DNA of 43,721 bases from a virus (IMGVR_UViG_3300035146_000036), one strand, 5' to 3'. Positions 822-17,323 are shown, counted from the stretch's first letter. Numbers and translations: made by a program. The notes: generated from the letters alone by a model not told the origin.

Positions 822-1193
822 ATGGACATTGAAGAACGTACAATACATTTGAAAATAAAGATAAAGTCACTTGCTGATGAAGCTAGGACGATAAGGAAAG
901 AAGCGAACAAAACTAATGGAATGGTGAAGTGGAATTTGAATGAACATAGAACAAAAGTAGTAAGACCACATACAAGGCATAATTTGCTTGCTTATGGTAT
1001 TCTTATTGGTACACCATATGAAATTATGGAGAAGAAGTGTCATGAACCACCTAAGTTTTCTGAGGTGTCAAAGATAGCAAAAAGATTTGGTGCTAAAGAA
1101 GAAACCATTTCTGAGTGGATAGAAAAGGCAAATTCTTATATTTCGACTTTTTTAATGGATTGTGGATTGAAACATGTAGAAAAAGTGGCATAA
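822..1193 (+). CDS. hypothetical protein (123 aa)
   Basis: ORF with RBS aaggagaaag 6 nt upstream of ATG. Confidence 0.5.
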   Translation: MDIEERTIHLKIKIKSLADEARTIRKEANKTNGMVKWNLNEHRTKVVRPHTRHNLLAYGILIGTPYEIMEKKCHEPPKFSEVSKIAKRFGAKEETISEWIEKANSYISTFLMDCGLKHVEKVA

Positions 1194-2147: not shown

Positions 2148-2474
2148 ATGAAATTTGTAAATTTGACACCGCATGTGATTATGTTAGAAACTGAATTTGG
2201 AAGACTGGAACTTAAAAGTTCTGGTTTTGCCAGATCTTCAATGATTATTGAAGATTTGGAGCCAATGGGCGATTCAGTAACGGGTCGTATTATGAGAAAA
2301 AGAGTGAAGTACGGTCCAGTGGAAGGATTGCCTGATCCAGAAGATGGTACGATTTATATCGTGTCAAGGCTAACTAAACAGCAGATTCCGAATCGTTCTG
2401 ATTGTTTAGTTCCTGAGGATCCGATCAGGGATGAAGAAGGAAATGTGATAGGTTGTCGTGCCTTGGCCGATTAG
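2148..2474 (+). CDS. hypothetical protein, paralog A (108 aa)
   Basis: Clear ORF with RBS; ~70% aa identity to 2949..3284. Confidence 0.7.
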   Translation: MKFVNLTPHVIMLETEFGRLELKSSGFARSSMIIEDLEPMGDSVTGRIMRKRVKYGPVEGLPDPEDGTIYIVSRLTKQQIPNRSDCLVPEDPIRDEEGNVIGCRALAD

Positions 2475-2948: not shown

Positions 2949-3284
2949 ATGAAGTTTGTAAATTTGACGCCAGATGTAATTAGACTTGAAACGGAATTTG
3001 GTGTAATAAAGATAGAGAGTTCTGGATATGCCAGAACATCAATAATTGTTGAAGATTTGGATCCAATTGATGACCCATTAATGGGTTATATTATGAGAAA
3101 GAGAATTAAACATGGTCCAGTAGAAGGGTTGCCTGGACCAGAAAATGGCACGATTTATATCGTATTAAGATCAACTAAACAACATATTTCAAATCGTTCG
3201 GATTGCCTTGTGCCTGAATATGAGCTATTTCCTATTAGGGATGAAGATGGTAATGTAATAGGTTGTCGCGCATTGGCTGATTAG
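2949..3284 (+). CDS. hypothetical protein, paralog B (111 aa)
   Basis: Tandem paralog of 2148..2474. Confidence 0.7.
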   Translation: MKFVNLTPDVIRLETEFGVIKIESSGYARTSIIVEDLDPIDDPLMGYIMRKRIKHGPVEGLPGPENGTIYIVLRSTKQHISNRSDCLVPEYELFPIRDEDGNVIGCRALAD

Positions 3285-5113: not shown

Positions 5114-5142
5114 TTGACAAATTTTTTGGAATGATGATAATG
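5114..5142 (+). promoter_or_regulatory. sigma70-like promoter TTGACAAAT-N17-gATAAT
   Basis: Sequence match; would drive the tRNA-like / Y-RNA-like cluster and possibly rsr. Confidence 0.45.
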
Positions 5143-5179
5143 GAATCAGTTGTTGAGGAGAGGACTGCTAAGGTAGTTC

Positions 5180-5252
5180 AGAAAAATAGCTCATTAGGTA
5201 GAGCGATAGATAGAGGATCTATAGGTAACAGGTTCAATTCCTGTTTTTTCTT
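5180..5252 (+). ncRNA. aberrant tRNA-like RNA (perfect acceptor, D and T arms; anticodon loop UAGAGGA lacks U33)
   Basis: agaaaaa/tttttct acceptor, gctc/gagc D stem, ataga/tctat anticodon stem, acagg-ttcaatt-cctgt T arm. Confidence 0.4.
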
Positions 5253-5286
5253 CCCACACTACTTTTACTACTATCTCTCCTCAATA

Positions 5287-5319
5287 TTTTATCGCTTCAA
5301 AAGAAGCGTGGATTGAAAC
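5287..5319 (+). repeat. solitary CRISPR-repeat-like unit 1: hairpin (cgcttc-aaaa-gaagcg) + TGGATTGAAAC
   Basis: Shares TATCG-hairpin-TGGATTGAAAC architecture with 8445-8479 and 16377-16413. Confidence 0.45.
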
Positions 5320-5327
5320 AAAAAAGA

Positions 5328-5474
5328 TGACATCGAGGACTAAATAGACGGTTCAGCTAGTGGATTTCTAATCCGCAGGTTATAGGTTCGAATCCTATTT
5401 TGTGTACCATATTCGCACAAGTAGCTCAAAGGTAGAGCAGCGTTAGTTTTCGTTTATTGAAATATCTCGATGTT
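5328..5474 (+). ncRNA. candidate Y RNA (YrlA-like): circularly permuted tRNA-like module enclosed by a long-range stem
   Basis: The 3' half of a tRNA (anticodon arm gtgga-UUUCUAA-tccgc, T arm atagg-ttcgaat-cctat, acceptor tttgtgt, A, CCA) at 5359-5409 is followed, after a 5-nt linker, by a 5' half (gcacaag-ta-gctc-aaaggta-gagc) at 5415-5438. Flanks 5330-5343 and 5443-5473 are complementary. Confidence 0.4.
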
Positions 5475-5510
5475 ATTTTTATAAGTATACTGGGAACTGA
5501 ATAGACAGTT

Positions 5511-5583
5511 CAGGATATAGAGCAATTGGTAGCTCATCGGCTTTGCACGCCGAAAGTCGTTGGTTCAAATCCAACTATCTTTC
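5511..5583 (+). tRNA. tRNA-Ala (UGC)-like (G3:U70 present, C1:U72 mismatch)
   Basis: D arm gagc-aattggta-gctc, anticodon stem tcggc/gccga with loop UUUGCAC, T arm gttgg-ttcaaat-ccaac. Confidence 0.55.
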
Positions 5584-5737
5584 ACGAACACTGTTTGTTA
5601 AAATATCCCAGTTTTTTCACTTCTGATTCCGAGAACTATACAGACATTTCAGGCAAGTATGCAAGTATGGTTGATAGTGTTTGTTAAACTGTCTCGGGTT
5701 TTTTTATTCTGGGACAATAATAACCAGGAGGTGTGTG

Positions 5738-7408
5738 ATGAATAGCATTACACGGATAGATGATGTTTGGTCGATAGTTGGAGTTGAGCCTGTTAGAATA
5801 GCGGATGATGTTTGTGCTTTTTTGGATGTGAGTACTACATCTTTTGGTAGGGCGACACATTATAATAGTCGTGAGAAGCAGTTGCATACTGAAGCAGCGG
5901 TTCATGGTCGTCTTTTTGATATATCGAGAGATTTGTATCAAATTTTGTTGTCATTACCAGGTACTACAGATAGAGCAAGACAAATAGGGATGTCTGCTTT
6001 GTTAGGAAGTAAACAGAAGAATGGCAAAGAATGTCTTTTGACTGGTACTATGGAACGAAGGGTTCTCGAGAGTTTTGTTAAGAGTTTACCTCCCCAAAGG
6101 ATGTTGAAATTATTTGATGCTTTTCGTGGATTCGGGAATGAGTTTGGAGCGAAAAAGTCAAATAATGCTCGAACAAGAAAACTTATTTTGAGGACTATTT
6201 TGAATAGTCCACGGTTAGAATTATGGACGATAAAATATCGTTCAAAATTGCAGAGAATTTTATCTCATGCATGGGGAAGAAGTCTCGGTTCTGCTATTGG
6301 TGCTGTAGCTGCCAAAAAGAGACGTAATGACAAAGAAAAATCTATGCTTAAAAAGCATGTTTTGAGTTATTTGGGTAGTAATTGTGGAAAAGTTGAAGTT
6401 GTAAATTTAAACCATGTTTTACAGTGTATTGCGTTTTTGTACGGGGAAAGAGACCGGATAAGTGATGACATGAAACTGTTGCAAAGTTTCATTAATGCAA
6501 AAACAAATATTTCTGATGGTTTGAAATTGCCGGCAGAGATAATTGAAGGAATAAGAAGCACTTATCATAAAAATGTTAGTGCATCAGAATTATTGAAGAT
6601 GCGTGCCGATGTAGGAGGTATAAGAACTCGTTACGAGAAAAGGGTAGTGCAGAAAAGGGTGAAAGAAGTTGGTGGAAAAGTAGAGATGAATCCACTGGAT
6701 TATGATGCAGTAGAACTTTATATCTATGCTTTTGAGGTTGGAGCAGATAGTGAAATACTTGAAGCATTAGATAAAAAAGCCAAAGATGCTGCAAAATTGT
6801 TGCCTGTTAGTTATGATAAGCTTGCAATTATTGTAGATGCATCGAAATCCATGGAAGGGAGCAAAGAGCAACCGATGAGACCGTTGGCAACTGCACTCTC
6901 TATTAGAGATATGTTGCAGAGGTCAGCAATTGAGTCAACGGTTTTGTATTGTGGTGGATTTGCAGATACTAAAGATATGCCGGATATATCTTCTAAGATA
7001 AAGATAGTAAAACCATCGTATGAAACAGAATTGGCTCAATCATTGTTAGATGCTTTGGTTTATGAACCTGATGCAGTATATGTGATTAGTGATGGATATG
7101 AAAATTCTCCTGCTGGACGATTTGGAGATGTTCTTAGAAAGGCTCGAGAAATAGGTATAGATGTTCCTGTAATCCATTGTAATCCTGTATTTGCATCTGA
7201 GACGGGTTCGGTTAGGGCATTGTGTGAAGGGATAGAGAAGGTTACTACATTGCCTGTGAGAAGTCCTATGGCAATGGGGTCTGGTATTATTCGTGGATTA
7301 ATAGAATCAGACCCGAGACGTGGATTGAACAGTATATTAAGGATTGCTTTGACTGGTGATTCTCCGTTGGCTGGATTGCTGACAGAGGGAGATGGAGGTG
7401 TGTCATGA
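5738..7408 (+). CDS. rsr: Ro60/Rsr-like protein (helical TROVE-like N-terminal region + C-terminal vWA domain with MIDAS)
   Basis: vWA MIDAS motifs LAIIVDASKSM ... SDGYEN, aligning with Ro60 LLAIDVSASM ... TDCETN; helical ~350-aa N-terminal region; SD aggagg before ATG 5738. Confidence 0.5.
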   Translation: MNSITRIDDVWSIVGVEPVRIADDVCAFLDVSTTSFGRATHYNSREKQLHTEAAVHGRLFDISRDLYQILLSLPGTTDRARQIGMSALLGSKQKNGKECLLTGTMERRVLESFVKSLPPQRMLKLFDAFRGFGNEFGAKKSNNARTRKLILRTILNSPRLELWTIKYRSKLQRILSHAWGRSLGSAIGAVAAKKRRNDKEKSMLKKHVLSYLGSNCGKVEVVNLNHVLQCIAFLYGERDRISDDMKLLQSFINAKTNISDGLKLPAEIIEGIRSTYHKNVSASELLKMRADVGGIRTRYEKRVVQKRVKEVGGKVEMNPLDYDAVELYIYAFEVGADSEILEALDKKAKDAAKLLPVSYDKLAIIVDASKSMEGSKEQPMRPLATALSIRDMLQRSAIESTVLYCGGFADTKDMPDISSKIKIVKPSYETELAQSLLDALVYEPDAVYVISDGYENSPAGRFGDVLRKAREIGIDVPVIHCNPVFASETGSVRALCEGIEKVTTLPVRSPMAMGSGIIRGLIESDPRRGLNSILRIALTGDSPLAGLLTEGDGGVS

Positions 7409-8412
7409 GTAGAAACATATCGATGGAAGACATCCTTTTTGGGATAGGTGCAGGAAGAGCACAATCGGTAGGAAATATGGAGGTTATTCCTTTGATTTCT
7501 GAAGATCGTGACGAGATAATTGATGAAAGTATGTATGGGACTCCTGCAGATGTGGAGATAGGTACTCGGAATTATGGCGAAGTTGATATGAGGAATGTTT
7601 CTGACCGAGTGAATTTTGTTCCTCCTGGTGCTGGTTGGGTTGTTAAAGAAGCTGCTCAAGACCATGCTATAGGAAGTGGAGAGATTCTTGGTCCAAAGAC
7701 ATCAAATCTTGTGAAGACTGCAAGATGTATTCAGTCTAATCAGGGTGGAACTATTTCGAAAGCAGCTCATGAGATGCTTGTTTTGCCAGTTGAACTTCGT
7801 GGTATTGCTTTAGCTAAAAGAAATATGCATGGATATAGTGAGATGTGGGATGATCTTGCTAATTTTAATTCTCAACATGGTATTCAAGGGTTTAAAGAAC
7901 TTGCTATTTTCTTGCAGGAATTTAAGCGACAAATGGATCAATTTGTTGCTGAGTTTGAGTTGGTACCAAATCAAATAGGAGCAGTGATTATTATAAATGG
8001 TAAAGTTATCGGTATTGAAATTGCTCCTACAAGAGATTATTGGCAATATGTTTGGACACCTTTGATTAGGGTATGTTATGGGTCTTTGGCATCTGAGTGT
8101 TATAAGAGGTCAAGTGTGGACCATAGAAATATACCTATTTCGAATAGGGATCCATTAGAGCTTGTTGAAAATACACTTTCTGGATTACGGGATGCTGTTT
8201 TGAAAACTGACCAGGATAGGATAGATGCTGTTAACGTTTTTGTTTCTTCTCTAAAAAAGAAGAAATTTTTGGTTGGTAATGTAGAACAGAATAGGAGTGA
8301 CCATTATTTATTATCTGGTTTGATACGTCCAGATCGTGAAAATGGACAGATTGAAGGTCAGATTGTTGTTACAGAAAAGACTATTCCGTTCTTTTCTGCT
8401 TGTGGTGTTTGA
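7405..8412 (+). CDS. hypothetical protein (335 aa), translationally coupled to the rsr-like gene
   Basis: ATGA overlap with upstream stop; no recognised motif. Confidence 0.65.
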   Translation: MSRNISMEDILFGIGAGRAQSVGNMEVIPLISEDRDEIIDESMYGTPADVEIGTRNYGEVDMRNVSDRVNFVPPGAGWVVKEAAQDHAIGSGEILGPKTSNLVKTARCIQSNQGGTISKAAHEMLVLPVELRGIALAKRNMHGYSEMWDDLANFNSQHGIQGFKELAIFLQEFKRQMDQFVAEFELVPNQIGAVIIINGKVIGIEIAPTRDYWQYVWTPLIRVCYGSLASECYKRSSVDHRNIPISNRDPLELVENTLSGLRDAVLKTDQDRIDAVNVFVSSLKKKKFLVGNVEQNRSDHYLLSGLIRPDRENGQIEGQIVVTEKTIPFFSACGV

Positions 8413-8444
8413 CAAAAATAATTTTTAAATTATTGTTATTATAA

Positions 8445-8479
8445 GTTATCGACCTATTAAATAGGTTGTGGATTGAAAC
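8445..8479 (+). repeat. solitary CRISPR-repeat-like unit 2: GTTATCGACCTATTAAATAGGTTGTGGATTGAAAC
   Basis: 35-nt unit starting GTT, 8-bp hairpin, ending ATTGAAAC. Confidence 0.45.
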
Positions 8480-8494
8480 GATTACCTTTCATGG

Positions 8495-8526
8495 AATGGG
8501 GCTGTTTTTCAGTCCCATTTTTTTAT
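8495..8526 (+). terminator. rho-independent terminator
   Basis: atggggctg-ttttt-cagtcccat stem followed by an 8-T tract. Confidence 0.8.
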
Positions 8527-8694
8527 TTAAACAGTTTTGTATTTTTGGTTATTTTTTACATAAATTGTATTTAATATGTAGTTTTTAATTTATATAACAT
8601 ATTAAAAATATTTATGTTTTTGTTTTTTTGGGGTTGAAATATCTATCGATTATGATACTATAGATTATCAATTTTCAACAAAAGGAGTAGTAAG

Positions 8695-9618
8695 ATGGGA
8701 ATGACACATTTGAATGTTTATTTTAGGAATAGTTTATGTAAACTATTGACAAATTGTTGGATGGCAGATTTAGTTGTTAATTCTTGTGATGGAACACCAT
8801 TATATGATGTATTTCCAGAAATAATTGATCAATTGAAAGATCGATATGCAAAGTCAGCAACTGTTACTGAATTTACTAATTTTCCGTTATCAACAGATCA
8901 AAGTGGGTTAACACTAGAAGTTACTGTTGATGGTGGTACTATGCAGACGCGTACTTTTTCAAGTCCTGCTATGACACTTGCTGAGATTTATGGTCAGATA
9001 AAAGGTTATTTCACAGATTGTGATATAATATTGGATGATAATGACCATATATCCATTGTTACGAAAAATAAAGGTCCTAATGCCAATTTAGTAATTGGTG
9101 GAACTTGTAATTTAGATTGGGGGCCAGTTACGCAAGGATCTGGTTATGATATTAGTACGCGATATTATATGGATGCTTATAGAATAAACATAAGACCACT
9201 TGTTGGGGAATATATTAATCATATTGAGATGGATATTCCGAATGGATGTTACAAGATTTGGTCAAGGTGTTGTTTTGGAGATAATGAGGAAACTTCTGTT
9301 GTGATGTTGCCAATTGAAGATTGTGGTGGATGTCGTACAGTAAATTTATTACTTCCTCAAGTTACGACTTGTTCTAAGTATGTATTGCATCCGATGATAG
9401 ATAGGATTGTGAATGATTATCAGGCAGTATTTCCATTAGATGCTGATAAGGTTACAATATTAAAGGCAATTGCCTATACTGGTGGATTAGGTAGGGAAGG
9501 GATTCTTGAACAGTTAAATATTAGAAAACAAGATGCTATTAATATTGAGAGGACTGATTTAGAGGCAAGAGTTGATGCTGTTATTACGATAGCACAACAG
9601 CTTCCACAATGTTGTTAA
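8695..9618 (+). CDS. hypothetical protein (307 aa), Cys-containing
   Basis: ORF with SD aaggag 6 nt upstream. Confidence 0.7.
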   Translation: MGMTHLNVYFRNSLCKLLTNCWMADLVVNSCDGTPLYDVFPEIIDQLKDRYAKSATVTEFTNFPLSTDQSGLTLEVTVDGGTMQTRTFSSPAMTLAEIYGQIKGYFTDCDIILDDNDHISIVTKNKGPNANLVIGGTCNLDWGPVTQGSGYDISTRYYMDAYRINIRPLVGEYINHIEMDIPNGCYKIWSRCCFGDNEETSVVMLPIEDCGGCRTVNLLLPQVTTCSKYVLHPMIDRIVNDYQAVFPLDADKVTILKAIAYTGGLGREGILEQLNIRKQDAINIERTDLEARVDAVITIAQQLPQCC

Positions 9619-9719
9619 TGAATGATTGAATGATTTTTTTGCTTGACAAAGAATAATTTGTCAATTATCTTTTGTGTGTGTCCATAGAAGTTCATACTTC
9701 TTGTTTCGTCATTTTGGTT

Positions 9720-9752
9720 TAGGGGCTGGGAAACCAGCCCCGATTTTTACTA
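9720..9752 (+). terminator. rho-independent terminator
   Basis: ggggctgg-gaaa-ccagcccc followed by gattttt. Confidence 0.75.
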
Positions 9753-9958
9753 GGAAAAAGTTATGAAACGACATGATAAAAACAGGATTAATAATGTAGT
9801 AAAAACAAAAGGTATTGTTTTGTCCTGTATCCTCTCTTTATCATTTTTCTTTTCATATTTGAGTTGGTAATTCTAGTCGGTTGACCGACAGAATTATTTT
9901 ACCATGTAGTTCTTGTACATGGGTAGATTGTTCATTGACAATAGAATAGTCCATAATT

Positions 9959-10045
9959 TGAGGTATGACAGAGTGGTAATGTGCTCGCCTGGAAAGCGTT
10001 GGCCATCTAGAGATAGGTGCGGGGGTTCAATTCCCTCTGCCTCAG
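9959..10045 (+). tRNA. tRNA-Ser (GGA)-like, type II, weak anticodon stem
   Basis: Acceptor tgaggta/tgcctca, D stem aca/tgt, loop CUGGAAA, long variable arm, T arm ggggg-ttcaatt-ccctc. Confidence 0.5.
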
Positions 10046-10051
10046 AAATCA

Positions 10052-10139
10052 GGAAGGTAACCGGCTGGATCAGGAGCATGTTTTGAAAACATGTGGCGCA
10101 TTGAGAGATGCGTTATGGGTTCGAGTCCCATACCTTCCT
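10052..10139 (+). tRNA. tRNA-Ser (UGA)
   Basis: Acceptor ggaaggt/accttcc, anticodon stem catgt/acatg with loop UUUGAAA, variable hairpin cgcat/atgcg, T arm atggg-ttcgagt-cccat. Confidence 0.8.
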
Positions 10140-10164
10140 CTAAATGACATCTAGATGATAGGTG

Positions 10165-10178
10165 TGAACTCGAGTTCG
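10165..10178. promoter_or_regulatory. palindrome tGAACTCGAGTTCG (copy 2, 13/14)
   Basis: 13 nt upstream of ATG 10191. Confidence 0.55.
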
Positions 10179-10190
10179 TTTGGAGGTGAA

Positions 10191-10370
10191 ATGTTAAGAA
10201 AAGATGAAGGATATGATGAAGTTAGTAAAGCATTAGATATGTATGAGGATGATATAAGTATGTTTGATGCTAGAGATGAAAGGGTTGAAAAGGAAATTGA
10301 TAAGCTTTTGGACGGAATTAATTTAGAACAATCGCTTAAGAATTTTGTAAGAATGTTTATTGGTGATTAG
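10191..10370 (+). CDS. hypothetical acidic small protein (59 aa)
   Basis: ATG 10191 with SD ggagg. Confidence 0.5.
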   Translation: MLRKDEGYDEVSKALDMYEDDISMFDARDERVEKEIDKLLDGINLEQSLKNFVRMFIGD

Positions 10371-10458
10371 GAGGATTGGCGGAAAGGTATCGCAGCGGAT
10401 TCGAAATCCGTAGTCATCGAAAGATATCGGTGTGAGAGTTCGAATCTCTCATCCTCCT
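10370..10458 (+). tRNA. tRNA-Ser (CGA)
   Basis: Acceptor ggaggat/atcctcc, D stem gcg/cgc, anticodon stem gcgga/tccgt with loop UUCGAAA, long variable arm, T arm gagag-ttcgaat-ctctc. Confidence 0.8.
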
Positions 10459-10536
10459 CTGTTTGTTGTTAATCTAATATCAACAAAGTAGTTTGTGTTG
10501 CAAAAAACGAGATTTGTGAGCAACAAAATGTATTAA

Positions 10537-10624
10537 GGGAAGTATTAATAAGGCTAGATGGTCTGGCAGAAGATTGTAAATCTTTTCCTCTAGTAGGCAT
10601 GTGGTTCGATTCCATCGCTTCCCA
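10537..10624 (+). tRNA. tRNA-Tyr (GUA)-like with enlarged D region
   Basis: Acceptor gggaagt/gcttccc, anticodon stem gaaga/tcttt with loop UUGUAAA. The D region is ~6 nt too long. Confidence 0.45.
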
Positions 10625-10628
10625 ATAT

Positions 10629-10711
10629 GGAAGGTTACGTTCAAGGGTAAACGGGAAGATTGCTAATCTTCTGTCATTCGTGGCTTACAGGTTCGAATCC
10701 TGTACCTTCCG
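10629..10711 (+). tRNA. tRNA-Ser (GCU)
   Basis: Acceptor ggaaggt/accttcc, D stem cgt/acg, anticodon stem gaaga/tcttc with loop UUGCUAA, 15-nt variable arm, T arm acagg-ttcgaat-cctgt. Confidence 0.8.
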
Positions 10712-10769
10712 CAAGTTTTTGTGATAGTATCTTTTTGAGAAAAATGAAATTTCAGAAAGGTATAAAATT

Positions 10770-10943
10770 ATGAAAGAGATTCTTGAACGATTAGAGAGAA
10801 AAATTGGTTTGGGTCCTGGTGGTAAATGTAAATGTCCTGAATGTGGTGAAGAAGTAAAACATGAAACTGGTGTATCATGTGATAGTATAAAATGTTCTAA
10901 ATGTGGGACTAGCATGAGAAGAGTTGTTAGAGAAGAAGAATAA
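10770..10943 (+). CDS. small zinc-ribbon protein (57 aa; CxC/CxxC ... CxxC), not in supplied ORF track
   Basis: ATG 10770 to TAA 10943, read by hand between tRNAs. Confidence 0.4.
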   Translation: MKEILERLERKIGLGPGGKCKCPECGEEVKHETGVSCDSIKCSKCGTSMRRVVREEE

Positions 10944-10953
10944 GGGTTAATAC

Positions 10954-11038
10954 GGGACGGTGGCGGAAATAGGTAGACGCAAGGGACTTAAAATCCCTCG
11001 GGGGAAACCTCATACGAGTTCGATCCTCGTCCGTCCTA
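10954..11038 (+). tRNA. tRNA-Leu (UAA)
   Basis: Acceptor gggacgg/ccgtcct, D stem gcg/cgc, anticodon stem aggga/tccct with loop CUUAAAA, long variable arm, T arm acgag-ttcgatc-ctcgt. Confidence 0.8.
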
Positions 11039-11044
11039 CAATAT

Positions 11045-11132
11045 GCCCGTGTAGTCGAATTTGGTATAGACGGTGGATTCAAAATCCATGGCAACTGAAA
11101 AGTCATTCTCGGTTCGAGTCCGAGCACGGGTA
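11045..11132 (+). tRNA. tRNA-Leu (CAA)
   Basis: Acceptor gcccgtg/cacgggt, D stem gtc/gac, anticodon stem gtgga/tccat with loop UUCAAAA, 18-nt variable arm, T arm ctcgg-ttcgagt-ccgag. Confidence 0.8.
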
Positions 11133-11139
11133 CTATAAT

Positions 11140-11211
11140 GGAACGGTAACTCAGTAGGTAGAGTGCTGGACTGAAAATCCAGATGCGACAGTTCGATTCT
11201 GTCCTGTTCCA
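11140..11211 (+). tRNA. tRNA-Phe (GAA)
   Basis: Acceptor ggaacgg/ctgttcc, D stem actc/gagt, anticodon stem ctgga/tccag with loop CUGAAAA, T arm gacag-ttcgatt-ctgtc. Confidence 0.85.
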
Positions 11212-11230
11212 CTAAAAATTATGGACTATT

Positions 11231-11479
11231 TTATGATAGGTCAATTTTTATCCATTTGTTGATGAGATTTTGATAAGTATCTGCAAATGGGCTTGATAAT
11301 TTTTTCAGTATTGATGGAATTTCTTCCCAGTTTGTTGTTGGAAGGATAGTAGATATTCCAAGGAGACCTTCGATTTCAACAAGATCATCTGTTGATTTTG
11401 ATTCAAATATTAGGTCATCTATAATAGTTAGGTCTTCTATTAAGTCATTTATTGGTTTGTTTTCATTGATTAGATTCAT
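11231..11479 (-). CDS. hypothetical acidic protein (82 aa)
   Basis: Minus-strand ORF; no motif. Confidence 0.5.
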   Translation of the reverse strand: MNLINENKPINDLIEDLTIIDDLIFESKSTDDLVEIEGLLGISTILPTTNWEEIPSILKKLSSPFADTYQNLINKWIKIDLS

Positions 11480-11483
11480 TTTT

Positions 11484-11714
11484 TTACCTTATTAATTGAT
11501 AAATAGTAGAAATTCTGTTTTGTTTCATTTTAATTCCAGTTATATAGCCTTTGATTGTTCTTTCTATTTGTCCTATTTCATTGTCATGAAATTTTGATTC
11601 ATGAGCAATTGATATTAATCTTTCTAGTAAATTTGAAATTTCATTAAATGAGAAATCTATTTCATTTCTTTTTTCTGATATTTCTTCGATGAGTTCATTT
11701 CTATTAGTTATCAT
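11484..11714 (-). CDS. hypothetical protein (76 aa)
   Basis: Start moved to the ATG after SD aaaaagga. The leader hairpin ctcaaca-AGA-tgttgag (11731-11747, minus) lies just upstream. Confidence 0.5.
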   Translation of the reverse strand: MITNRNELIEEISEKRNEIDFSFNEISNLLERLISIAHESKFHDNEIGQIERTIKGYITGIKMKQNRISTIYQLIR

Positions 11715-11826
11715 TTTTATTATCCTTTTTCTCAACATCTTGTTGAGTATCTACTTTGATTTTAAGACATTAAAAATGGTTTGTCAACTTTTTTATGCGA
11801 ACTCGATATTCTTTTTCTTTTTATTA

Positions 11827-11970
11827 TTACCAATATTTAGCCCCTTTGAGGTTAGCCCCTTTGAGGTTGTACCCTTCGAGGTATGTTCCAAAGAAATCGA
11901 TATCACGCAATTCTCCTTGCGAACAATATAGAATTTCATTCGTTATTGGATGCTTTTTAAACATATTCAT
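11827..11970 (-). CDS. candidate small protein (47 aa) with tandem NLKGA repeats
   Basis: Read by hand. ATGA overlap with the stop of 11967..12260; covers three 15-bp direct repeats. Confidence 0.3.
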   Translation of the reverse strand: MNMFKKHPITNEILYCSQGELRDIDFFGTYLEGYNLKGANLKGAKYW

Positions 11971-12260
11971 TTTTTGCTTCCTTTGTTATAATTAAAACAG
12001 ATATGGATAAGAGGGTTATAATCATATGCCCATCTTGGGATAATTGTTCCACAAGTAGCACAGAAAACATCAGCTGCTTCTCTGGCTTCCTCAGAAGAGC
12101 AGAATTTGTTTTCGCACTTATGATTACAGTAATTTTGTTTTTTTTCTCCATGTTTATTGAATTTGCACTCGTCAACTTTTTTTGATGTGCATATCCATTC
12201 CCATTCATGTTGAAATTGCATGTAATTATGGATAAATAGTTTGCAGTGATTTGGTTTCAT
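11967..12260 (-). CDS. Cys-rich hypothetical protein (97 aa)
   Basis: ATG 12260. Its 5' UTR on the minus strand carries two AACAAGATGT motifs including hairpin cgaaca-AGA-tgttcg (12267-12281). Confidence 0.6.
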   Translation of the reverse strand: MKPNHCKLFIHNYMQFQHEWEWICTSKKVDECKFNKHGEKKQNYCNHKCENKFCSSEEAREAADVFCATCGTIIPRWAYDYNPLIHICFNYNKGSKK

Positions 12261-12346
12261 TTTATGTGCCTTTCTTCGAACATCTTGTTCGACATCTTGT
12301 TATTAATGATAATACTTTTTGAGTGATTTGCAACAAAAAAAATGTG

Positions 12347-12375
12347 TTGACAAATTTTTTTATCGTTGTTAGATA
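12347..12375 (+). promoter_or_regulatory. sigma70-like promoter TTGACAAAT-N17-TAGATA
   Basis: The -10 ends 5 nt before ATG 12381, suggesting a leaderless transcript. Confidence 0.5.
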
Positions 12376-12380
12376 TATAT

Positions 12381-13274
12381 ATGATTGATTCATGTCTTGA
12401 CACGGGTGATGAAAATCATTGGGGTATACGGAAAGGAGATATTTTGAAATTTGGGGCAGTTTTTATAGATTTTGAAAATTTGTATTTGTCTTTGAAGCAT
12501 AAATACAAAGAACACGATATTTTATTTGTGAAAATAGTAGAAGCTGTTATAGATAGACTTGAAAATGACCTTGAATCCACTGTCGTTGTAAGAAGAAATT
12601 ACTTACCATTTGGTGCTCATGATTATGCTACTATGGCAGATGAACTTGCGTTAGATGGGTTTAAGTCAGTACATGTTCTTGCAGAATTATCGAAAAATTC
12701 AGCAGATTTAGTGCTTGCTGTTGATGCTATGGAAACAGTTTATACACGTGATAATATTGAGGTTTTTTGTATTATTGGGGGTGATAGAGATTATATTCCA
12801 GTAGTAGCGAAATTGAAAGAGCTTGGTAAACATTGTATAGTGTGTTCTATGCCTGATTCTATGTCTGGAGATCTTCTTAGATTTATAGGTGAAGATTTAT
12901 ATTTTAATCCTATTGAAATGGTAGAATGTGTATTAGTGGTTGACAGGAAAAGTTGTTCAAAGAAAGAATCTATATCAAAAAAGATAGATGATGAAGAGGT
13001 TGAACGATGGAAGTCTTTTGCTAAAGTTGCACATGATATGAGAGAAAAATATGACAATCCTGAAATATGGATGGCTCCGTATATCACATTGTTGTCAGAA
13101 AGATTTCCTAACTTAGCTAGAAAAGACATTCGTGACACAATTGCTAGTATGGAGAAGTGTGGTATATGGCATAGAGAGGAGAGAGAATCAGATAGAGCGA
13201 ATATTAGTTCATATTCTGTTTTGATAGTAGACTGGAATCATTCATTAATACAGGAAACGTTGATGATTGAATAA
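12381..13274 (+). CDS. NYN-domain (LabA-like PIN) ribonuclease-like protein with C-terminal OST-HTH/LOTUS-like region
   Basis: GAVFIDFENL ... LVLAVDAMET ... FCIIGGDRDYIPVV motifs of NYN domains; no SD upstream. Confidence 0.6.
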   Translation: MIDSCLDTGDENHWGIRKGDILKFGAVFIDFENLYLSLKHKYKEHDILFVKIVEAVIDRLENDLESTVVVRRNYLPFGAHDYATMADELALDGFKSVHVLAELSKNSADLVLAVDAMETVYTRDNIEVFCIIGGDRDYIPVVAKLKELGKHCIVCSMPDSMSGDLLRFIGEDLYFNPIEMVECVLVVDRKSCSKKESISKKIDDEEVERWKSFAKVAHDMREKYDNPEIWMAPYITLLSERFPNLARKDIRDTIASMEKCGIWHREERESDRANISSYSVLIVDWNHSLIQETLMIE

Positions 13275-13281
13275 TTTACAG

Positions 13282-13310
13282 TTGACAAATTTGTTTTTGA
13301 TGGTTAATAA
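13282..13310 (+). promoter_or_regulatory. sigma70-like promoter TTGACAAAT-N17-TAATAA
   Basis: Sequence match. Confidence 0.5.
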
Positions 13311-13362
13311 AAATATAGAGTGATTTCCTGGGAGATCCAGGATGAGAAGGAGGAGAATGAAA

Positions 13363-13563
13363 ATGGTTAAGGTAAAATATTTTAGAATTGATACGAGAGA
13401 AGATTCCAAATATTGTGGTTATGAGATTATTAGTAGAGAAGGAGAATTTGAATTTTGGACCAATGATGACAGGATAGCTTTTGAAGAAAAGATAGAGACT
13501 GCTTTTAGGCAATGTTTGGGTAGTGACCTTGAAGTTTGTGCTGTAGGGATAAAACGAAGTTAA
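13363..13563 (+). CDS. hypothetical protein (66 aa)
   Basis: ATG 13363 follows SD aggagga. Confidence 0.5.
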   Translation: MVKVKYFRIDTREDSKYCGYEIISREGEFEFWTNDDRIAFEEKIETAFRQCLGSDLEVCAVGIKRS

Positions 13564-13579
13564 AAGTGATTTAAGAAAA

Positions 13580-13593
13580 CGAACTCGAGTTCG
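13580..13593. promoter_or_regulatory. palindrome CGAACTCGAGTTCG (copy 3)
   Basis: Perfect copy, 19 nt upstream of ATG 13612. Confidence 0.6.
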
Positions 13594-13611
13594 TAAAATA
13601 AGGATAATATA

Positions 13612-14193
13612 ATGGAATATAAAAATGGAGATTTTCGTGTTTGGTGGATACCACAGGTTCCTATGGAGGCTTTTTATGTATATGTTCAGTCTTTAGTTGA
13701 AGCGAAGAAGATTTTAACTGTTTTGGCTGATTATGACATGTTTCAGTATAATAATAATGTTAAACCAGATTATTGTAATGTAGGAGGTCTTCAAATATAT
13801 GAGGAAGGGGAATGGTTTGATTGGGAATCTGAAGATGGTGAATCTATAGATAAGTTAAGTATTTTTGAACTTGAAAGACTTAATGCTTGTGTATGTGAAT
13901 ATGATAATATTCCTGATGCTATTTTGTTAGCTATTAATAATCATGTTTTAAGAGGACAACATTGTGGTCATTTTGTTACGGCTGTACTCAGTAATGATTT
14001 GATAGAAGCAGTTAATAGGGCTGATGATGAATGTCAGAAGTGTTTACGGTCAATTGTTAGATATTTATATAATAGATGTCCAGGTGGGTGTTGGGGATCA
14101 AAAAAGGAGATGGAAGAATGGAGGAAAAATGGTGGAACAGAAGGAAAGGAAGTTGGAGATATAGGAGGTTTGATTTATCCAAGAGGGATTTGA
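13612..14193 (+). CDS. hypothetical Cys-rich protein (193 aa)
   Basis: ORF. Confidence 0.6.
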   Translation: MEYKNGDFRVWWIPQVPMEAFYVYVQSLVEAKKILTVLADYDMFQYNNNVKPDYCNVGGLQIYEEGEWFDWESEDGESIDKLSIFELERLNACVCEYDNIPDAILLAINNHVLRGQHCGHFVTAVLSNDLIEAVNRADDECQKCLRSIVRYLYNRCPGGCWGSKKEMEEWRKNGGTEGKEVGDIGGLIYPRGI

Positions 14194-14195
14194 TT

Positions 14196-14906
14196 ATGAA
14201 AACTATGAAAATAATAATAATAAGTATAATTTTATCTATTTCAATTAAATCTGAATCATACAGTTTATATGAGACTAGTGAAGGTAAAAATGCAAGATGG
14301 AGGGAATCATATATTGAGATAGTTTTAGATGATAGTATGGAAGGAATTGGGGATAAAAATGATGTTGAATATATTATTAAGGAATCGTTTAATTTATGGA
14401 TAAATGATGCTAATTTACCATTTTTTATTGAAATATTTTGGGATGATTGTAGTGAAACATTGAATGATGATGATAATTGTATATTTGTCGTTTATGAAGA
14501 TTGTAATAGACCAAAAAATAAAGCTGCTACTACATATCTTAATGTTATTCCATCTACTGGAAAGATTATCGGATTTGATGTAATAATTAATGCAGAGGAT
14601 TGGGATTGGGATTTGTTTTGTAAAGACAAAGATGGTCTTTGTTTGCAAAGAGTAATGTTGCATGAATTTGGACACATATTAGGAATAAGTCATTCTGATA
14701 ATCATGACGCAATAATGTATAAATCATTATTGAACAAATATGATAAAGTAAAAGAACTACATCAAGATGATATTGATGCAGCAGATGCATTATATTCTAA
14801 TTTTATTGTTGAAGAACGAGATTTTTATGAATTAGCATGTTCGTCATCTATTATTGGAAATGATAATTCGAATAGTATTTTTGATTTATTTTTATTGTTT
14901 TTATAA
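14196..14906 (+). CDS. secreted metzincin/matrixin-like zinc metalloprotease (HEFGHxLGxxHS + Met-turn)
   Basis: N-terminal hydrophobic signal MKTMKIIIISIILSISI; HEFGHILGISHSDNHDAIMY motif; SD agaggga. Confidence 0.65.
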   Translation: MKTMKIIIISIILSISIKSESYSLYETSEGKNARWRESYIEIVLDDSMEGIGDKNDVEYIIKESFNLWINDANLPFFIEIFWDDCSETLNDDDNCIFVVYEDCNRPKNKAATTYLNVIPSTGKIIGFDVIINAEDWDWDLFCKDKDGLCLQRVMLHEFGHILGISHSDNHDAIMYKSLLNKYDKVKELHQDDIDAADALYSNFIVEERDFYELACSSSIIGNDNSNSIFDLFLLFL

Positions 14907-14915
14907 GGAGATTTA

Positions 14916-15431
14916 ATGCTTTTTGTGACTTCAGACCATCATTTTGGTCATAAAAAAATAATAGAATATGAAAATAGACCTTTTTCATCTGTTGAAGAAA
15001 TGGATGAAGTTTTAATAAGGCGATGGAATGAGGTTGTAGGTCATGAAGATATAGTATTTTATCTTGGAGATTTTATGTTCTATGGGTCAAAGAGAAAAGC
15101 TATTGATATATTGAATCGATTAAATGGACGAAAGAATCTTATTATCCTTGGAAATCATGATAGATGTCGTAACATAGGATGGTGGGAAAGAATTGGGTTT
15201 AGACAGGCTTTGGATTGCAAATATATTTTAGGAAGGGTTATTTTGTCTCATGAACCTATACTTTATGATATAGGGGATTTCCATAATATTCATGGACATA
15301 TACATTCAGATAAATTGTCTGAAGCAAGAAATAGTAATAAACATTTTAATGTATCGGTTGATGCAACAGGATATAGACCAGTTTCAATGGATAGAATATT
15401 AGCATCAATTCAGGGAAGAGAAGATGGGTAA
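14916..15431 (+). CDS. calcineurin-like metallophosphoesterase
   Basis: DHHFGH ... GDF ... GNHD ... GHIH motifs. Confidence 0.7.
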   Translation: MLFVTSDHHFGHKKIIEYENRPFSSVEEMDEVLIRRWNEVVGHEDIVFYLGDFMFYGSKRKAIDILNRLNGRKNLIILGNHDRCRNIGWWERIGFRQALDCKYILGRVILSHEPILYDIGDFHNIHGHIHSDKLSEARNSNKHFNVSVDATGYRPVSMDRILASIQGREDG

Positions 15432-15624
15432 GAAAAAACATAGTACAAGAAGAATGTATAGACAAAGACGAAAGGATAAGGAGAATCATTTATTGTTTGA
15501 AGATGATTTTTATTTAGAAAGAAAATGTAAAATATGCGGTGCAAGTCCTGTTTTACCTAAAACTGGTATATGTTTGGCTTGTACATATGGTGAAATTGAA
15601 GAAAGGGTTGAAGATGAGTTTTAA
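15424..15624 (+). CDS. small zinc-finger protein (66 aa)
   Basis: CKICG...CLAC; overlaps upstream stop. Confidence 0.5.
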   Translation: MGKKKHSTRRMYRQRRKDKENHLLFEDDFYLERKCKICGASPVLPKTGICLACTYGEIEERVEDEF

Positions 15625-16357
15625 GATGAATGTTGTAACGGTTGAGGCTACTTTGTTGGAAGAAATGCTTGGGATGTCGCCAGATCCTAATATATATGGT
15701 GAATTTATAGCAAAAAATGCTCCAGATTCAAAGAAAATGAAGGAAGAAATGGAAGCATTAACAAAAGATCTTTCTCCTGAAGAAGCTGCTAAGATAATTC
15801 TTGATAAAGGAACAACCGTTTTCCCACGTGATGAAGATGGTATACCAATTATGTGGGATTTCCAAATGAAGGGAAATTTTAAAGATGTTTGTGGAATGCT
15901 GTATCGTGCCGAAGGTACATTATCTTCAAAATTTACAGCATACAAAAAGAAGATTGATGGTTTGATTTTTGTGAAACCACGAAAGATTAGATTGCTTGTG
16001 CCAGATGGTGGAAAGATTGGTGAATGTCAACGTCCATTAAGAGCCCAAACGGCTCGAGGTGAGATTACAGCGTTAGCAAATAGTGAAACGGTTCCAGCAG
16101 GAACTAAACTTGTTTTTGATATTGAGTATATGGATTTGAAGGGGAAAGCACCGAAGATTGTAAAAAAAGGGGGTAAAACAGTAAAAGATGAAGATGGAAA
16201 TATTGTTTGGACAAAATCAGAAATGCTTGAAACTATTAAAGAATGGCTTAATTATGGTGCTTATCGCGGTCTTGGACAATGGAGAAATAGTGGAAAGGGA
16301 ATATATGAATATAAAATAATTGAAGTTAATATGTGTGATGAAAATCATTGGAATTGA
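15614..16357 (+). CDS. hypothetical protein (247 aa)
   Basis: ATG 15614; function unknown. Confidence 0.6.
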   Translation: MSFKMNVVTVEATLLEEMLGMSPDPNIYGEFIAKNAPDSKKMKEEMEALTKDLSPEEAAKIILDKGTTVFPRDEDGIPIMWDFQMKGNFKDVCGMLYRAEGTLSSKFTAYKKKIDGLIFVKPRKIRLLVPDGGKIGECQRPLRAQTARGEITALANSETVPAGTKLVFDIEYMDLKGKAPKIVKKGGKTVKDEDGNIVWTKSEMLETIKEWLNYGAYRGLGQWRNSGKGIYEYKIIEVNMCDENHWN

Positions 16358-16376
16358 AAATGACTTTGAATTTACT

Positions 16377-16413
16377 GTTGTGTCGCCTCATTAAATGGGG
16401 CGTGGATTGAAAC
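16377..16413 (+). repeat. solitary CRISPR-repeat-like unit 3: GTTGTGTCGCCTCATTAAATGGGGCGTGGATTGAAAC
   Basis: 37-nt unit with hairpin cgcctc/ggggcg and an ATTGAAAC 3' end. Confidence 0.45.
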
Positions 16414-17276
16414 GAAAAGGATAAGAAGACAGATGATCTGATTGTTGAGAATGGAAAAGAAGAGGAGAAGAATCGAGAAGAATCGACACGAAAAGAAATG
16501 GATAGGACTCGATAGGATAAGAATAGGAAAGGCGAGGAGTGGATTAGGTGAGAAAAGGAGATGAGTTCAACGGAGCGTATTGAGATGAAAAGAAAAGGAA
16601 GAGAGCATAAATGTTCCGACTAGAAAAGGAATAGAGATGACGAGTCTTGTGCGGAAAAGGAAATGAAATATATAGAACTGTTTTGTAGTGAACTGAAAAT
16701 GAATGGAAGTTACTAGAGAGGTTAAGATTTGAATTGAAAAGGATATTTGTTTGCGAACTCGAGTTCATTTTTAAGAAAAGGAAAGGATTCGAATCGGGAT
16801 GACTGGATTGGAAAGGAATAGGAGGGGATCCGAGGCGATAAGAACAGATTGGATTAGAAATGGAGTAGAACGGACTTGAGCTAAACTGAAAAGGAAGGGA
16901 ATAGACGCTAGTTGAGATGAAAGGATAAGGATTAGTCCTGACATGAACTGAGATGAGACGAAATGGATCTGTGTTGAGGCGATTGGTTGAGAGAGGAAAA
17001 GGAATAGAGAACACTGGAATTGAATGGAAATAAAATGGAAGGGAAAGGAAAGGCGTCGAGCGGAGATGATGAGAAATGGTGTGGAGAAGAACGGAGTCGA
17101 AGTGAATAGGTTATAGAGGAAAAGGAAAAGATAGGAAGAGAATAGATTCGAGCAGAGAAGGATTCGAGAGGAATTGAACTGATGTGAAGTGATATGGAAC
17201 AGAATAGAGCATTGCAGAGCAAAATGTAGAAGAGCAGAAAAGGAATAGAAGGGATTGGAGCAGAAAAGGAATTGGA
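16414..17276 (+). repeat. ~860-bp strand-biased GA-rich non-coding island with degenerate GAAAAGGAATAGA-type repeats
   Basis: No + strand ORF; ~17 copies of GAAAAGG(A) motifs. Only low-complexity minus ORFs are present. Confidence 0.6.
16754..16767. promoter_or_regulatory. palindrome CGAACTCGAGTTCa (copy 4, 13/14) inside the GA-rich island
   Basis: Sequence match. Confidence 0.45.
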
Positions 17277-17323
17277 TTTTAAAAATGTTGATTTTGTATT
17301 ATAATTGAGTAATAATATTTGTT

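Follow-up and report, generated by a model that had tools for sequence, protein, structure and literature searches.

The stretch of viral DNA analysed here, 43,721 nt long and referred to as the window, has the character of a phage: it contains replication genes and 17 tRNAs and gives PHROG matches. Among its features (Table 1) are four short units that share one architecture, consisting of a 2-nt overhang, a 6-8-bp stem-loop and an exact 11-nt handle, UGGAUUGAAAC. The exact 11-mer TGGATTGAAAC occurs in the window at 1163, 5309, 8469 and 16403, all on the plus strand, with none on the minus strand; shuffling gave an expected count of 0.10, and four copies were reached in 0 of 100 shuffles. Three of these units had been noticed in an earlier, sequence-only reading and are real and present where it placed them, with the boundaries now refined as tabulated, but its count was too low: the window has four, unit 0 being the addition, and the same strains have two further dispersed units a short way before the window. 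Copies per genome number four to six. The description of the units as dispersed also holds, as no second repeat or pseudo-repeat was found near any window unit; they are solitary and do not form an array. Unit 0 is located at the 3' end of an ORF (822-1193), with a tRNA-Ala 83 nt downstream. Unit 1 lies within a tRNA operon, where 36 nt separate it from the preceding tRNA-Leu and 19 nt from the following tRNA-like element, which also gives a weak Y-RNA-like match (YrlA, E 4e-5; its 37 bits fall short of the gathering score).

Table 1. Coordinates of the solitary units and associated features in the window
Feature	Position	Strand	Details
Unit 0	1142..1173	+	TT-CGACTTTTTTAATGGATTG-TGGATTGAAAC; exact handle, degenerate stem
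Crn4 ring-nuclease homologue	2148..2474	+	PDB 9sma, 9r7b, 9qs9, E 4e-12; PADLOC Unk_01, E 2e-24
Second Crn4 ring-nuclease paralogue	2949..3284	+	both members match Unk_01
Promoter-like site	5114..5141	+	TTGACA-16-GATAAT, 11/12; heads tRNA operon holding unit 1
Unit 1	5291..5319	+	AT-CGCTTC-AAAA-GAAGCG-TGGATTGAAAC; 29 nt
tRNA-like element	5339..5462	+	directly 3' of unit 1; Rfam tRNA 32 bits
Promoter-like site	8409..8436	+	TTGACA-16-TATTGT; about 10 nt upstream of unit 2; fits phage promoter consensus
Unit 2	8448..8479	+	AT-CGACCTAT-TAA-ATAGGTTG-TGGATTGAAAC; 32 nt
Intrinsic terminator	8493..8528	+	13 nt past unit 2; also in L011, without the unit
Orphan Cas7-family RAMP-fold protein gene	15587..16357	+	stop codon 24 nt before unit 3
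Unit 3	16382..16413	+	GT-CGCCTCAT-TAA-ATGGGGCG-TGGATTGAAAC; 32 nt
ORF-free purine-rich stretch (about 0.9 kb)	16414..17290	+	starts at end of unit 3 handle; 73% purine

A hairpin of 6-8 pairs, opening with T-CG, stands flush 5' of each exact handle. Pairing is complete in unit 1 (6/6) and in units 2 and 3 (8/8 each, G-U pairs included), while unit 0 retains 5/6. The stems are AT-rich and each is unlike the others, whereas the handle is constant. The proposal that the hairpins differ yet covary was borne out in a set of 13 units and array repeats of the same geometry, in which 91% of cells are paired and five of eight pairs have changed on both sides, a result matched by 0 of 500 shuffles. All 11 handle bases are kept in nine of about 11 dispersed units (counting L011-404, a unit of the relative L011 described below), despite a different stem in every one. 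Strain variants of unit 3 retain the handle and mostly the pairing; in L148 the 5' arm of this unit has been lost.

On sequence grounds we assign the elements to the type I-C CRISPR repeats, each of them a solitary unit, because four exact handles are present against 0.10 expected, the T-CG hairpins are flush and the stems covary. Type I-C repeats are built from 2 nt, a 7-bp stem and 11 nt; Cas5c reads the cut site and the handle and cleaves at the stem base, which results in an 11-nt handle (PMC8524198). The type I-C repeat of X. citri is GTCGCGCCCTCACGGGCGCGTGGATTGAAAC (PMC9504256), and UGGAUUGAAAC is identical in this repeat and in all four window units. The initial description of the units as CRISPR-repeat-like therefore stands as regards solitary repeats, but not as regards Cas6, since the subtype is I-C, for which Cas5c would be the processing enzyme; likewise, the 8-nt handle it assigned, ATTGAAAC, gives way to the whole 11-mer UGGAUUGAAAC as the conserved handle (PMC8524198, PMC9504256). 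It had also counted the lack of any resembling host repeat as evidence against itself. This condition is partly addressed by arrays with the same stem-plus-handle type, which were found in at least 120 bacterial contigs as well as in a sister strain; two genome scans gave no host-specific repeat, and no bacterial spacer matching the window was found. Against Rfam CRISPR-DR9, unit 3 scored 24 bits (gathering score 45) and 12 true array repeats of the sister strain scored 21.5-31.6 bits, while units 0-2 gave no match at E <= 1. Unit 3 reads as the most canonical type I-C repeat among the four. With the canonical type I-C (Dvulg) repeat the units share the GTCGC...GCG frame, the stem-loop flush on UGGAUUGAAAC and, in units 2 and 3, the 32-nt length; they differ in lying outside arrays, in their AT-rich, mutually unlike stems and in the 29-nt length of unit 1. 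Moreover, canonical repeats form an array with spacing of about 33-35 nt beside cas genes, whereas the window units have neither, and no Cas Pfam match was found among the window ORFs.

Each unit has a hairpin positioned after a gene or an RNA, and a predicted promoter (TTGAAA-16-CATAAT) overlaps the unit 0 handle, as might be expected of intrinsic terminators or promoter elements of the usual kind whose likeness to a repeat is due to chance. However, the hairpin of each unit runs straight into TGGATTGAAAC and not into a U-run, as the G+C-rich hairpin of an intrinsic terminator would: a T-run follows the hairpin in 0 of 4 units, and the terminator scan flagged none of them. Promoter-like spacing is seen in unit 0 only, and every copy matches the type I-C handle at 11/11 positions and has the GTCGC...GCG frame. 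We regard such a chance resemblance as scarcely credible, and identity as an intrinsic terminator is effectively refuted by the missing U-run and the exact I-C handle. The concern of the sequence-only reading that the elements might be simple terminators is thus removed, a separate true terminator being found after unit 2. The promoter-like site, unit 2 and this terminator together would constitute a compact predicted small-RNA gene of about 85 nt.

Contig L020, which is Cas-minus, matches the window at 100% identity. A sister strain that is 99.97% identical, L019, carries a cas5c-cas8c-cas7 cassette (Cas5d, Csd1, Cas7) and 12 repeats in two compact arrays of 4 and 8, which have the same handle as the window units. 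The catalytic region of its Cas5c is conserved, and no cas1, cas2 or cas3 was found beside the cassette. The cassette is located outside the window; the window's strain and other strains lack it but retain the units. The first L019 spacer matches the window's strain at 35/37 positions directly after TTC, the type I-C PAM according to PMC8406640, and its target is a gene confined to Cas-minus sister strains. Units 0-2 are unchanged in L019 relative to the window, and unit 3 has one stem substitution that keeps the pair; unit 3 and the L019 array repeats also have an extra 5' CTGT extension in common. Rival phages are known targets of phage-borne CRISPR-Cas systems without adaptation or nuclease genes (Al-Shayeb et al., Nature 2020, PMC7162821), as a sibling is of the L019 spacer, and the L019 cassette with its two compact arrays and no adjoining cas1, cas2 or cas3 resembles them. 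It differs from those systems in that the L019 lineage also has dispersed solitary units and that the cassette is not in the window's strain.

Comparison with the relative L011, which is about 81% identical, revealed a rapid turnover of units. L011 has four other units with exact handles but different stems and sites, and no unit is common to both lineages. Every unit compared corresponds to a precise 27-32-nt lineage-specific indel: unit 0 is an insertion relative to L011, unit 1 is a precise 27-nt indel with flanks that are about 90% identical, and unit 2 is missing from the homologous L011 site. The L011-404 unit and the repeat at the end of the sister strain's array are homologous.

Solitary repeat units in phages have been described as RNA anti-CRISPRs, or Racrs (Camara-Wilpert et al., Nature 2023, PMC10651486), a recent discovery of which few natural cases have been studied in context. 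Among them, RacrIC1, encoded 11 nt past acrIC5, is a validated type I-C inhibitor (PMC10651486). In type I-F Racrs the inhibitory part is the fragment upstream of the cut. The window units resemble Racrs in being single repeat mimics carried by a virus, placed on the strand that is transcribed and near promoter-like sites, in belonging to the same subtype as RacrIC1, and in having neighbours of anti-CRISPR type, which here are putative (the Crn4 homologues and the Cas7-like orphan). Racrs are defined as repeat mimics that stand on a virus or plasmid apart from other full or partial repeats, as the window units do; by a promoter within about 250 bp upstream, for which promoter-like sites lie about 10 nt before unit 2 and about 150 nt before unit 1, in a scan that was not above chance overall (81 sites against 69 expected); and by a match to the CRISPR subtype of the host, where the comparison made was with the arrays in the sister strain, which are of type I-C like the units. 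The differences are four to six copies per genome instead of one, unrelated stems with a single invariant handle, several copies in tRNA operons, rapid gain and loss between close relatives, and the existence of Cas-plus variants with arrays in this lineage.

We give about even odds (a probability of roughly 0.5) to the interpretation that the units are RNA decoys of the Racr type, which sequester Cas5c and Cas7 belonging to a type I-C system. An RNA anti-CRISPR role, raised as a hypothesis when the elements were first noticed, is the best-supported function given the precedent of RacrIC1, whereas decoy activity itself is something we infer. The units would be highly transcribed inside phage transcripts. 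Specifically, unit 2, between its promoter and terminator, would be a small RNA in its own right, units 0 and 1 would be released by RNase P and RNase Z from the leaders or spacers of tRNA operons, and unit 3 would be carried in the 3' UTR of the Cas7-like gene. Release from tRNA operons, which the position of the units suggests, would parallel engineered tRNA-guide arrays. Cas5c, supplied by a host type I-C system or by a co-infecting Cas-plus sister phage, would recognise the handle and the hairpin base, cleave there and remain bound. Because a proper spacer and a 3' repeat are absent, only dead-end subcomplexes would form, and since Cas5c and Cas7 would be titrated from real crRNAs, type I-C interference against this phage would be weakened. 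Such a decoy would require an invariant handle and would leave the stems free to vary, which fits what Cas5c reads, unlike type I-F, where the Cas6f hairpin matters. In favour of decoys we count the selective pressure implied by the L019 cassette and its spacer, the location of all units on the transcribed strand with flanking promoter-like sites or a terminator, the turnover with an invariant handle, and the nearby Crn4 homologues and Cas7-fold orphan. Against them stand signs of decay, namely the broken stem of unit 0, a handle mutation in an upstream unit that is polymorphic among strains and the lost 5' arm of unit 3 in one strain; in addition, L019's own solitary units would compete with its crRNAs too, the scans gave neither a host-specific repeat nor a bacterial spacer matching the window, and in the type I-F precedent inhibition comes from the part upstream of the cut. 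If decoys they are, the locus would record a natural contest of sister phages, one of which has a type I-C Cascade without Cas3 and a spacer directed at the other, while both carry several type I-C repeat mimics.

The presence of Cas5c, Cas8c and Cas7 in the lineage, with no cas3, cas1 or cas2 adjoining, also accommodates units that act in cis for the phages' own type I-C Cascade. Cas5c from Cas-plus variants or the host could cut transcripts at the units, separating or stabilising tRNA precursors and the purine-rich RNA, or the handle and downstream sequence could be loaded as array-independent guides for Cas3-less, CRISPRi-like regulation; transcriptional repression has been proposed for nuclease-less phage CRISPR systems. 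The handle common to units and arrays and the CTGT extension of unit 3 agree with such sites, as does a tRNA 5-85 nt downstream of half of about ten dispersed units, although by our estimate this enrichment is weak within intergenic space alone, and tRNA maturation needs no Cas5c. The units are moreover kept in the window's strain and in others that lack the cassette, and no TTC-flanked PAM-proximal match of at least 9 nt was found for the sequence downstream of the units in the window, L019 or L020. We consider cis-acting sites unlikely. To the same degree we doubt that the units are neutral relics, single repeats scattered by array recombination or aberrant integration that decay slowly without function, in which case they would be of modest interest. 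Decayed copies do exist (unit 0, the upstream unit with handle TTGATTGAAAC, the polymorphic handle GATTAAAAT and unit 3 of L148 without its 5' arm), the homology of L011-404 to the sister array's terminal repeat implies that arrays can collapse to one repeat, and the two lineages have no unit in common. Yet relics would hardly keep 11/11 handle bases in nine of about 11 units while their stems diverge, nor stems paired through compensatory changes, nor a location of every unit on the transcribed strand and of none on the opposite one. About ten independent gains in two close lineages would require a high insertion rate or selection, and 27-nt insertions in conserved tRNA spacers are not explicable by array collapse.

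Phage repeat-derived RNAs that engage Cas proteins also include Cracr-type crRNA-like regulators, with viral examples reported for type I-C among others (10.1101/2024.10.29.618823). Here the handle and a short pseudo-spacer would redirect Cascade so that it silences the cas promoter, or a toxin that guards CRISPR, in the host or the rival phage. In the RNA from unit 2 the handle would be followed by about 45 nt with a hairpin at their end, but this hairpin is an older terminator, found in L011 without the unit. For the 11 nt past unit 0 there is a match in L019, 2 nt 5' of the -35 box of its cas5d promoter; this match, however, has ATA and not TTC as PAM and falls on the A-tract that belongs to the general promoter consensus of the phage. 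None of the units is followed by a second pseudo-repeat, and a search of the window, L019 and L020 gave no TTC-flanked seed match between a pseudo-spacer and a cas or toxin promoter, the feature that defines a Cracr. We consider such regulators very improbable.

The genes around the units may bear on defence as well. The Crn4 homologue at 2148 is a candidate enzyme against type III CRISPR or CBASS signalling (PMC12830947), and the Crn4 homologues lie 1-2.3 kb from units 0 and 1. The Cas7 kinship of the orphan gene before unit 3 is visible by fold only, and the fold of its product has nearer counterparts in Csm3, Cmr4 and type VII Cas7 than in type I-C Cas7; the protein belongs to a large, unnamed and widespread phage family. 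Orphan viral cas homologues can act as anti-CRISPRs (Katz et al., 10.1101/2023.06.24.545427). The gene resembles these in its Cas7 fold and in standing alone within an accessory region of the phage, beside a repeat mimic, but differs in its kinship by fold only and in the 0.9-kb purine-rich non-coding region that follows it. That region contains GAAAAGGA 12 times, is the least structured stretch of the window, and evolves by block indels between motif copies; the region and the Cas7-like gene are both present in L152 and both missing in L011. Less probable than either cis-acting sites or relics, in our view, is a single module of unit 3, the Cas7-fold gene and the 0.9-kb GAAAAGGA-motif RNA. 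Cas5c would dock on the handle at the 5' end of the unfoldable RNA and Cas7 would polymerise along it, producing a sink of high capacity for Cascade subunits or a new phage RNP in which a Cas7 relative assembles on non-CRISPR RNA; as a corollary, the phage family would gain lone repeats by insertion, and tRNA processing would release them. The Cas7 of such a module could come from the host, from a rival phage or from the phage's own Cas7-like protein. A widespread Cas7-fold phage family beside a repeat mimic and a long purine-rich RNA offers a starting point for studying that family.

Four hairpin units, each ending in the same 11 nt, are dispersed along the window. The sequence-only reading had proposed three CRISPR-repeat-like elements; these are present where it placed them, but it had overlooked a fourth (unit 0), betrayed by a further copy of the 11-mer TGGATTGAAAC. 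This 11-mer has four copies in the window, on the + strand only, against an expectation of 0.10, and four copies arose in 0 of 100 dinucleotide-preserving shuffles. Each unit is a hairpin with a T-CG opening whose last base stands directly before the 11-mer, hereafter the handle. The units were located by scanning directly for a hairpin followed by the handle; their stems differ in length, and MAFFT cannot register them. Among 13 units and repeats of the same geometry, five of eight stem pairs had changed on both sides, a covariation score that none of 500 shuffles reached, which bears out the earlier claim that the hairpins covary.

Units, neighbouring features and the sister-strain cas cassette, in window coordinates unless a contig is named
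Feature	Position	11-mer at	Stem or content	Setting
Unit 0	1142-1173, +	1163	degenerate stem	83 nt upstream of tRNA cluster
Unit 1	5291-5319, +	5309	CGCTTC/GAAGCG	between tRNA-Leu and tRNA-like element; strong promoter-like site 5114-5141 upstream
Unit 2	8448-8479, +	8469	CGACCTAT/ATAGGTTG	promoter-like site 8409-8436, unit, 13 nt, terminator 8493-8528
Unit 3	16382-16413, +	16403	CGCCTCAT/ATGGGGCG; full repeat GTCGCCTCATTAAATGGGGCGTGGATTGAAAC	24 nt 3' of ORF 15587-16357
Extra unit GTCGCTTCAAAAGAAGCTTTGATTGAAAC			stem of unit 1, handle TTGATTGAAAC	11 nt before tRNA-Ile
Extra unit TTCGCTCCCTTAAAAGGAGTGTGGATTGAAAT			ends in GAAAT	5 nt before tRNA-Gln
Crn4 homologues	2148-2474; 2949-3284		NLTPH motif	
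tRNA-like element	5339-5462			
DxSxS ORF	5681-7408		556-575 aa	just 3' of tRNA-like element; ARPP-1 protein next
Predicted Cas7-fold ORF	15587-16357			upstream of unit 3
Purine-rich region	16414-17290		877 nt, ORF-free, 73% purine, 7% C	directly 3' of unit 3
cas cassette	L019 1681-6065		Cas5d, Csd1 (Cas8c), Cas7	~4.6-8 kb upstream of window position 1

By its sequence, the unit architecture is that of a type I-C (Dvulg) CRISPR repeat, such as the Xanthomonas citri repeat GTCGCGCCCTCACGGGCGCGTGGATTGAAAC (PMC9504256). Repeats of this type fold into a 7-bp stem with 2 nt overhanging on its 5' side and 11 nt on its 3' side, and Cas5c cleaves them at the stem base to yield an 11-nt 5' handle (PMC8524198). 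Unlike Cas6, Cas5c recognizes the cut site and the handle, not the stem (PMC8524198), and the invariant handle and freely varying stem of the phage units match this mode of recognition. The original repeat idea was thus right as to identity, but its Cas6 and 8-nt handle give way to subtype I-C, Cas5c and an 11-nt handle. Unit 3 scored 24 bits against Rfam CRISPR-DR9, for which the model threshold is 45; the true array repeats of L019, a Cas-plus sister strain contig, scored 21.5-31.6 bits. When genomes were scanned with a single stem (that of the sister strain array) plus the handle, arrays turned up in at least 120 bacterial contigs spread over many phyla; none of these contigs had the phage loops TTTAA, TTCAT or TTAAA or a spacer matching the phage. 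The pattern TCGNNNNATTAAATNNNNNGTGGATTGAAAC, which covers units 2 and 3, gave 0 matches in IMG/VR and 0 in GTDB genomes.

Contigs of the same phage, recovered by exact-protein look-ups, contain two more dispersed type I-C units just upstream of the window (L019 7255 / L020 7439 / L021 5827, and L002 2112-2145). The extra unit TTCGCTCCCTTAAAAGGAGTGTGGATTGAAAT is polymorphic among strains, with two SNPs in L001 and L003, one of which falls within the handle. L011, a syntenic relative with DNA identity of ~81%, has four exact-handle units whose stems and sites are other than the window's, and in window/L011 alignments the units are separate indels. At unit 1 the insertion measures 27 nt and lies within a tRNA operon that is ~90% identical to L011, unit 0 stands in place of ~9 nt at a gene 3' end, and unit 2 is absent from L011 together with its AT-rich leader, the terminator being kept. 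The L011 units at 6854 and 11023 are in turn absent from the window, and the one at 404 is the counterpart of the repeat at the end of the L019 array. Among strains, the unit 3 handle is invariant and the stem varies, with U-G changed to C-G in one and a pair lost in another. In L148 3040-3100, a variant of window 16357-16413, a deletion that runs from around the stop codon up to the loop has removed the 5' arm of unit 3; the 3' arm, handle and purine-rich region are retained. No type I-C units were seen in the gut-phage records L008-L010 or at the loci L013-L018, which hold distant homologues of the 307-aa neighbour gene; since this gene is found in several kinds of setting, the latter loci are uninformative.

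Between the window and the Cas-plus contig L019 (JGI 3300035136, Ga0373584_0000016) there are 2 SNPs and 1 gap over 10.5 kb (99.97% identity); the Cas-minus contig L020 is 100% identical to the window over 10.6 kb. Two type I-C arrays, one with 4 repeats and one with 8, come after the L019 cassette; their period is 72-74 nt, and both carry exactly the handle of the window units. Its Cas5d is close to D. vulgaris Cas5c (E 1e-66), with the Y...K-H region conserved; other genes occupy the position of the cas locus in L020 and in L021, also Cas-minus. The first L019 spacer matches L020 2819-2855 at 35 of 37 positions directly 3' of TTC, the type I-C PAM (PMC8406640), so a type I-C system in the sibling targets the strain to which the window belongs. 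The protospacer lies in a 962-aa gene present in Cas-minus strains only. Nuclease-less phage-borne CRISPR systems aimed at rival phages are known (PMC7162821), and the L019 cassette resembles them in being phage-borne, in having no cas3, cas1 or cas2 beside it and in having a rival phage as its target.

Within the window, two paralogous ORFs show homology to the ring nuclease Crn4 (PDB E 4e-12; PADLOC Unk_01 E 2e-24). Crn4 is rare in phages and is a proposed anti-CRISPR there (PMC12830947); the two homologues are candidate enzymes for breaking down the cyclic oligoadenylates with which type III CRISPR or CBASS signals. The ORF upstream of unit 3 had no family match, and its structure is predicted with confidence to be a Cas7/Csm3 RAMP fold (pLDDT 80.7, Foldseek E 5e-8), in a family of ~2,758 mostly metagenomic proteins. 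Anti-CRISPR action is possible for orphan viral cas homologues (Katz et al., preprint 10.1101/2023.06.24.545427). The purine-rich region holds 12 copies of GAAAAGGA, often 30-40 nt apart, against 0.5 expected, is predicted to be the least structured RNA of the window (-120 vs -198 ± 26 kcal/mol) and varies between strains by 31-71-nt block indels that fall between motif copies. Degenerate handles within it were not above chance (2 vs 0.6 expected; 8 vs 4.0 expected). L152, another relative, likewise has a purine-rich gap, of 1.5 kb, after its Cas7-like gene; neither gene nor gap is present in L011. Accessory genes with an anti-defence or host-takeover flavour lie at 7405-8412, 12366-13274, 13612-14193, 14076-14906 and 1521-1907, the set comprising ARPP-1/ARPP-2, an NYN RNase, a GP17 superinfection-exclusion domain, an M10 metalloprotease with a signal-like N-terminus and a YspA-type SLOG protein.

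Alongside the observed repeat identity, solitary state, strand, covariation, turnover, anti-defence neighbourhood and type I-C targeting of the strain, we infer transcription, Cas5c binding and inhibition, and give a probability of about 0.5 to the units being Racr-type decoys, that is, RNA anti-CRISPRs, directed against type I-C CRISPR. Unit transcripts would be bound and cut by Cas5c, supplied by the host or by a co-infecting Cas-plus sibling, and the cut RNAs would then sequester Cas5c and Cas7 in dead-end complexes. Lone repeats are already known as RNA anti-CRISPRs, type I-C included, with RacrIC1 as the validated precedent for this subtype (PMC10651486), and the units would be further members. 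They differ from known Racrs in their multiple copies, divergent stems, sites within tRNA operons and fast gain and loss, in the sibling strain's own type I-C system being aimed at the phage, and in the position of one unit, with an orphan Cas7-fold gene on its 5' side and a long putative purine-rich RNA on its 3' side.

Against the decoy reading, the same units are kept in the Cas-plus sibling, and some copies look decayed. The units may instead act in cis, as sites where Cas5c processes transcripts or as sources of guides for the Cascade of the lineage itself, which we consider rather unlikely; an origin as neutral relics is to our mind equally unlikely. Regulators of the Cracr type (crRNA-like RNAs) are improbable; no self-targeting or Cracr-style seed match was found beside a TTC PAM in the window, L019 or L020. 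Least probable are terminator or promoter elements: no T-run follows the unit hairpins, the 11-mer standing there instead, and a terminator scan called none of the units, the genuine terminator lying 3' of unit 2. The handle was also tried as a -35 promoter box and rejected, the spacing being right for unit 0 alone.

The expression context of all units comes from consensus scans. The promoter-like site, unit 2 and terminator would form a small-RNA gene of ~85 nt, and unit 1 might be released by RNase Z and RNase P. A promoter-like consensus, GAAAAAAGTNGTTGACAAA with TTAGTAT or TAGGAT ~17 nt further on, recurs in the window (for example at 2875-2908, 3367-3399, 12343-12375 and 40597-40606), and TGTTGACAAAC has four copies. 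The tRNA-like element gave a weak, under-threshold match to the Y-RNA-like YrlA (37 bits, E 4e-5), and with the DxSxS ORF it could be a Ro60/Y-RNA-like pair; a PDB sequence search with the 556-aa ORF, considered as a Ro60 relative, gave no match.

The window is a phage-like region of 33% G+C in which nearly all genes are on the + strand and G-over-C skew is very strong, at +0.2 to +0.5 throughout (1-43721). Its genes include DnaB, RecA, an SNF2-type helicase, an RNA ligase and methyltransferases, and Pfam detected no Cas proteins among its ORFs. No close isolate phage relative was found, megablast of 5000-17000 against isolate phages giving no match, and look-ups of two flanking proteins found no close relatives in IMG/VR. 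ARAGORN called 16 tRNA genes, to which Rfam adds one weak tRNA match, in several clusters; those for Glu, Ala, Ser and Leu are duplicated. The palindrome (C)GAACTCGAGTTC(G) has seven mostly intergenic copies (1490, 10166, 13581, 16755, 22384, 29759 and 37590), two of them flagged as terminator-like, and it also occurs inside the first spacer of the sister strain's array B.
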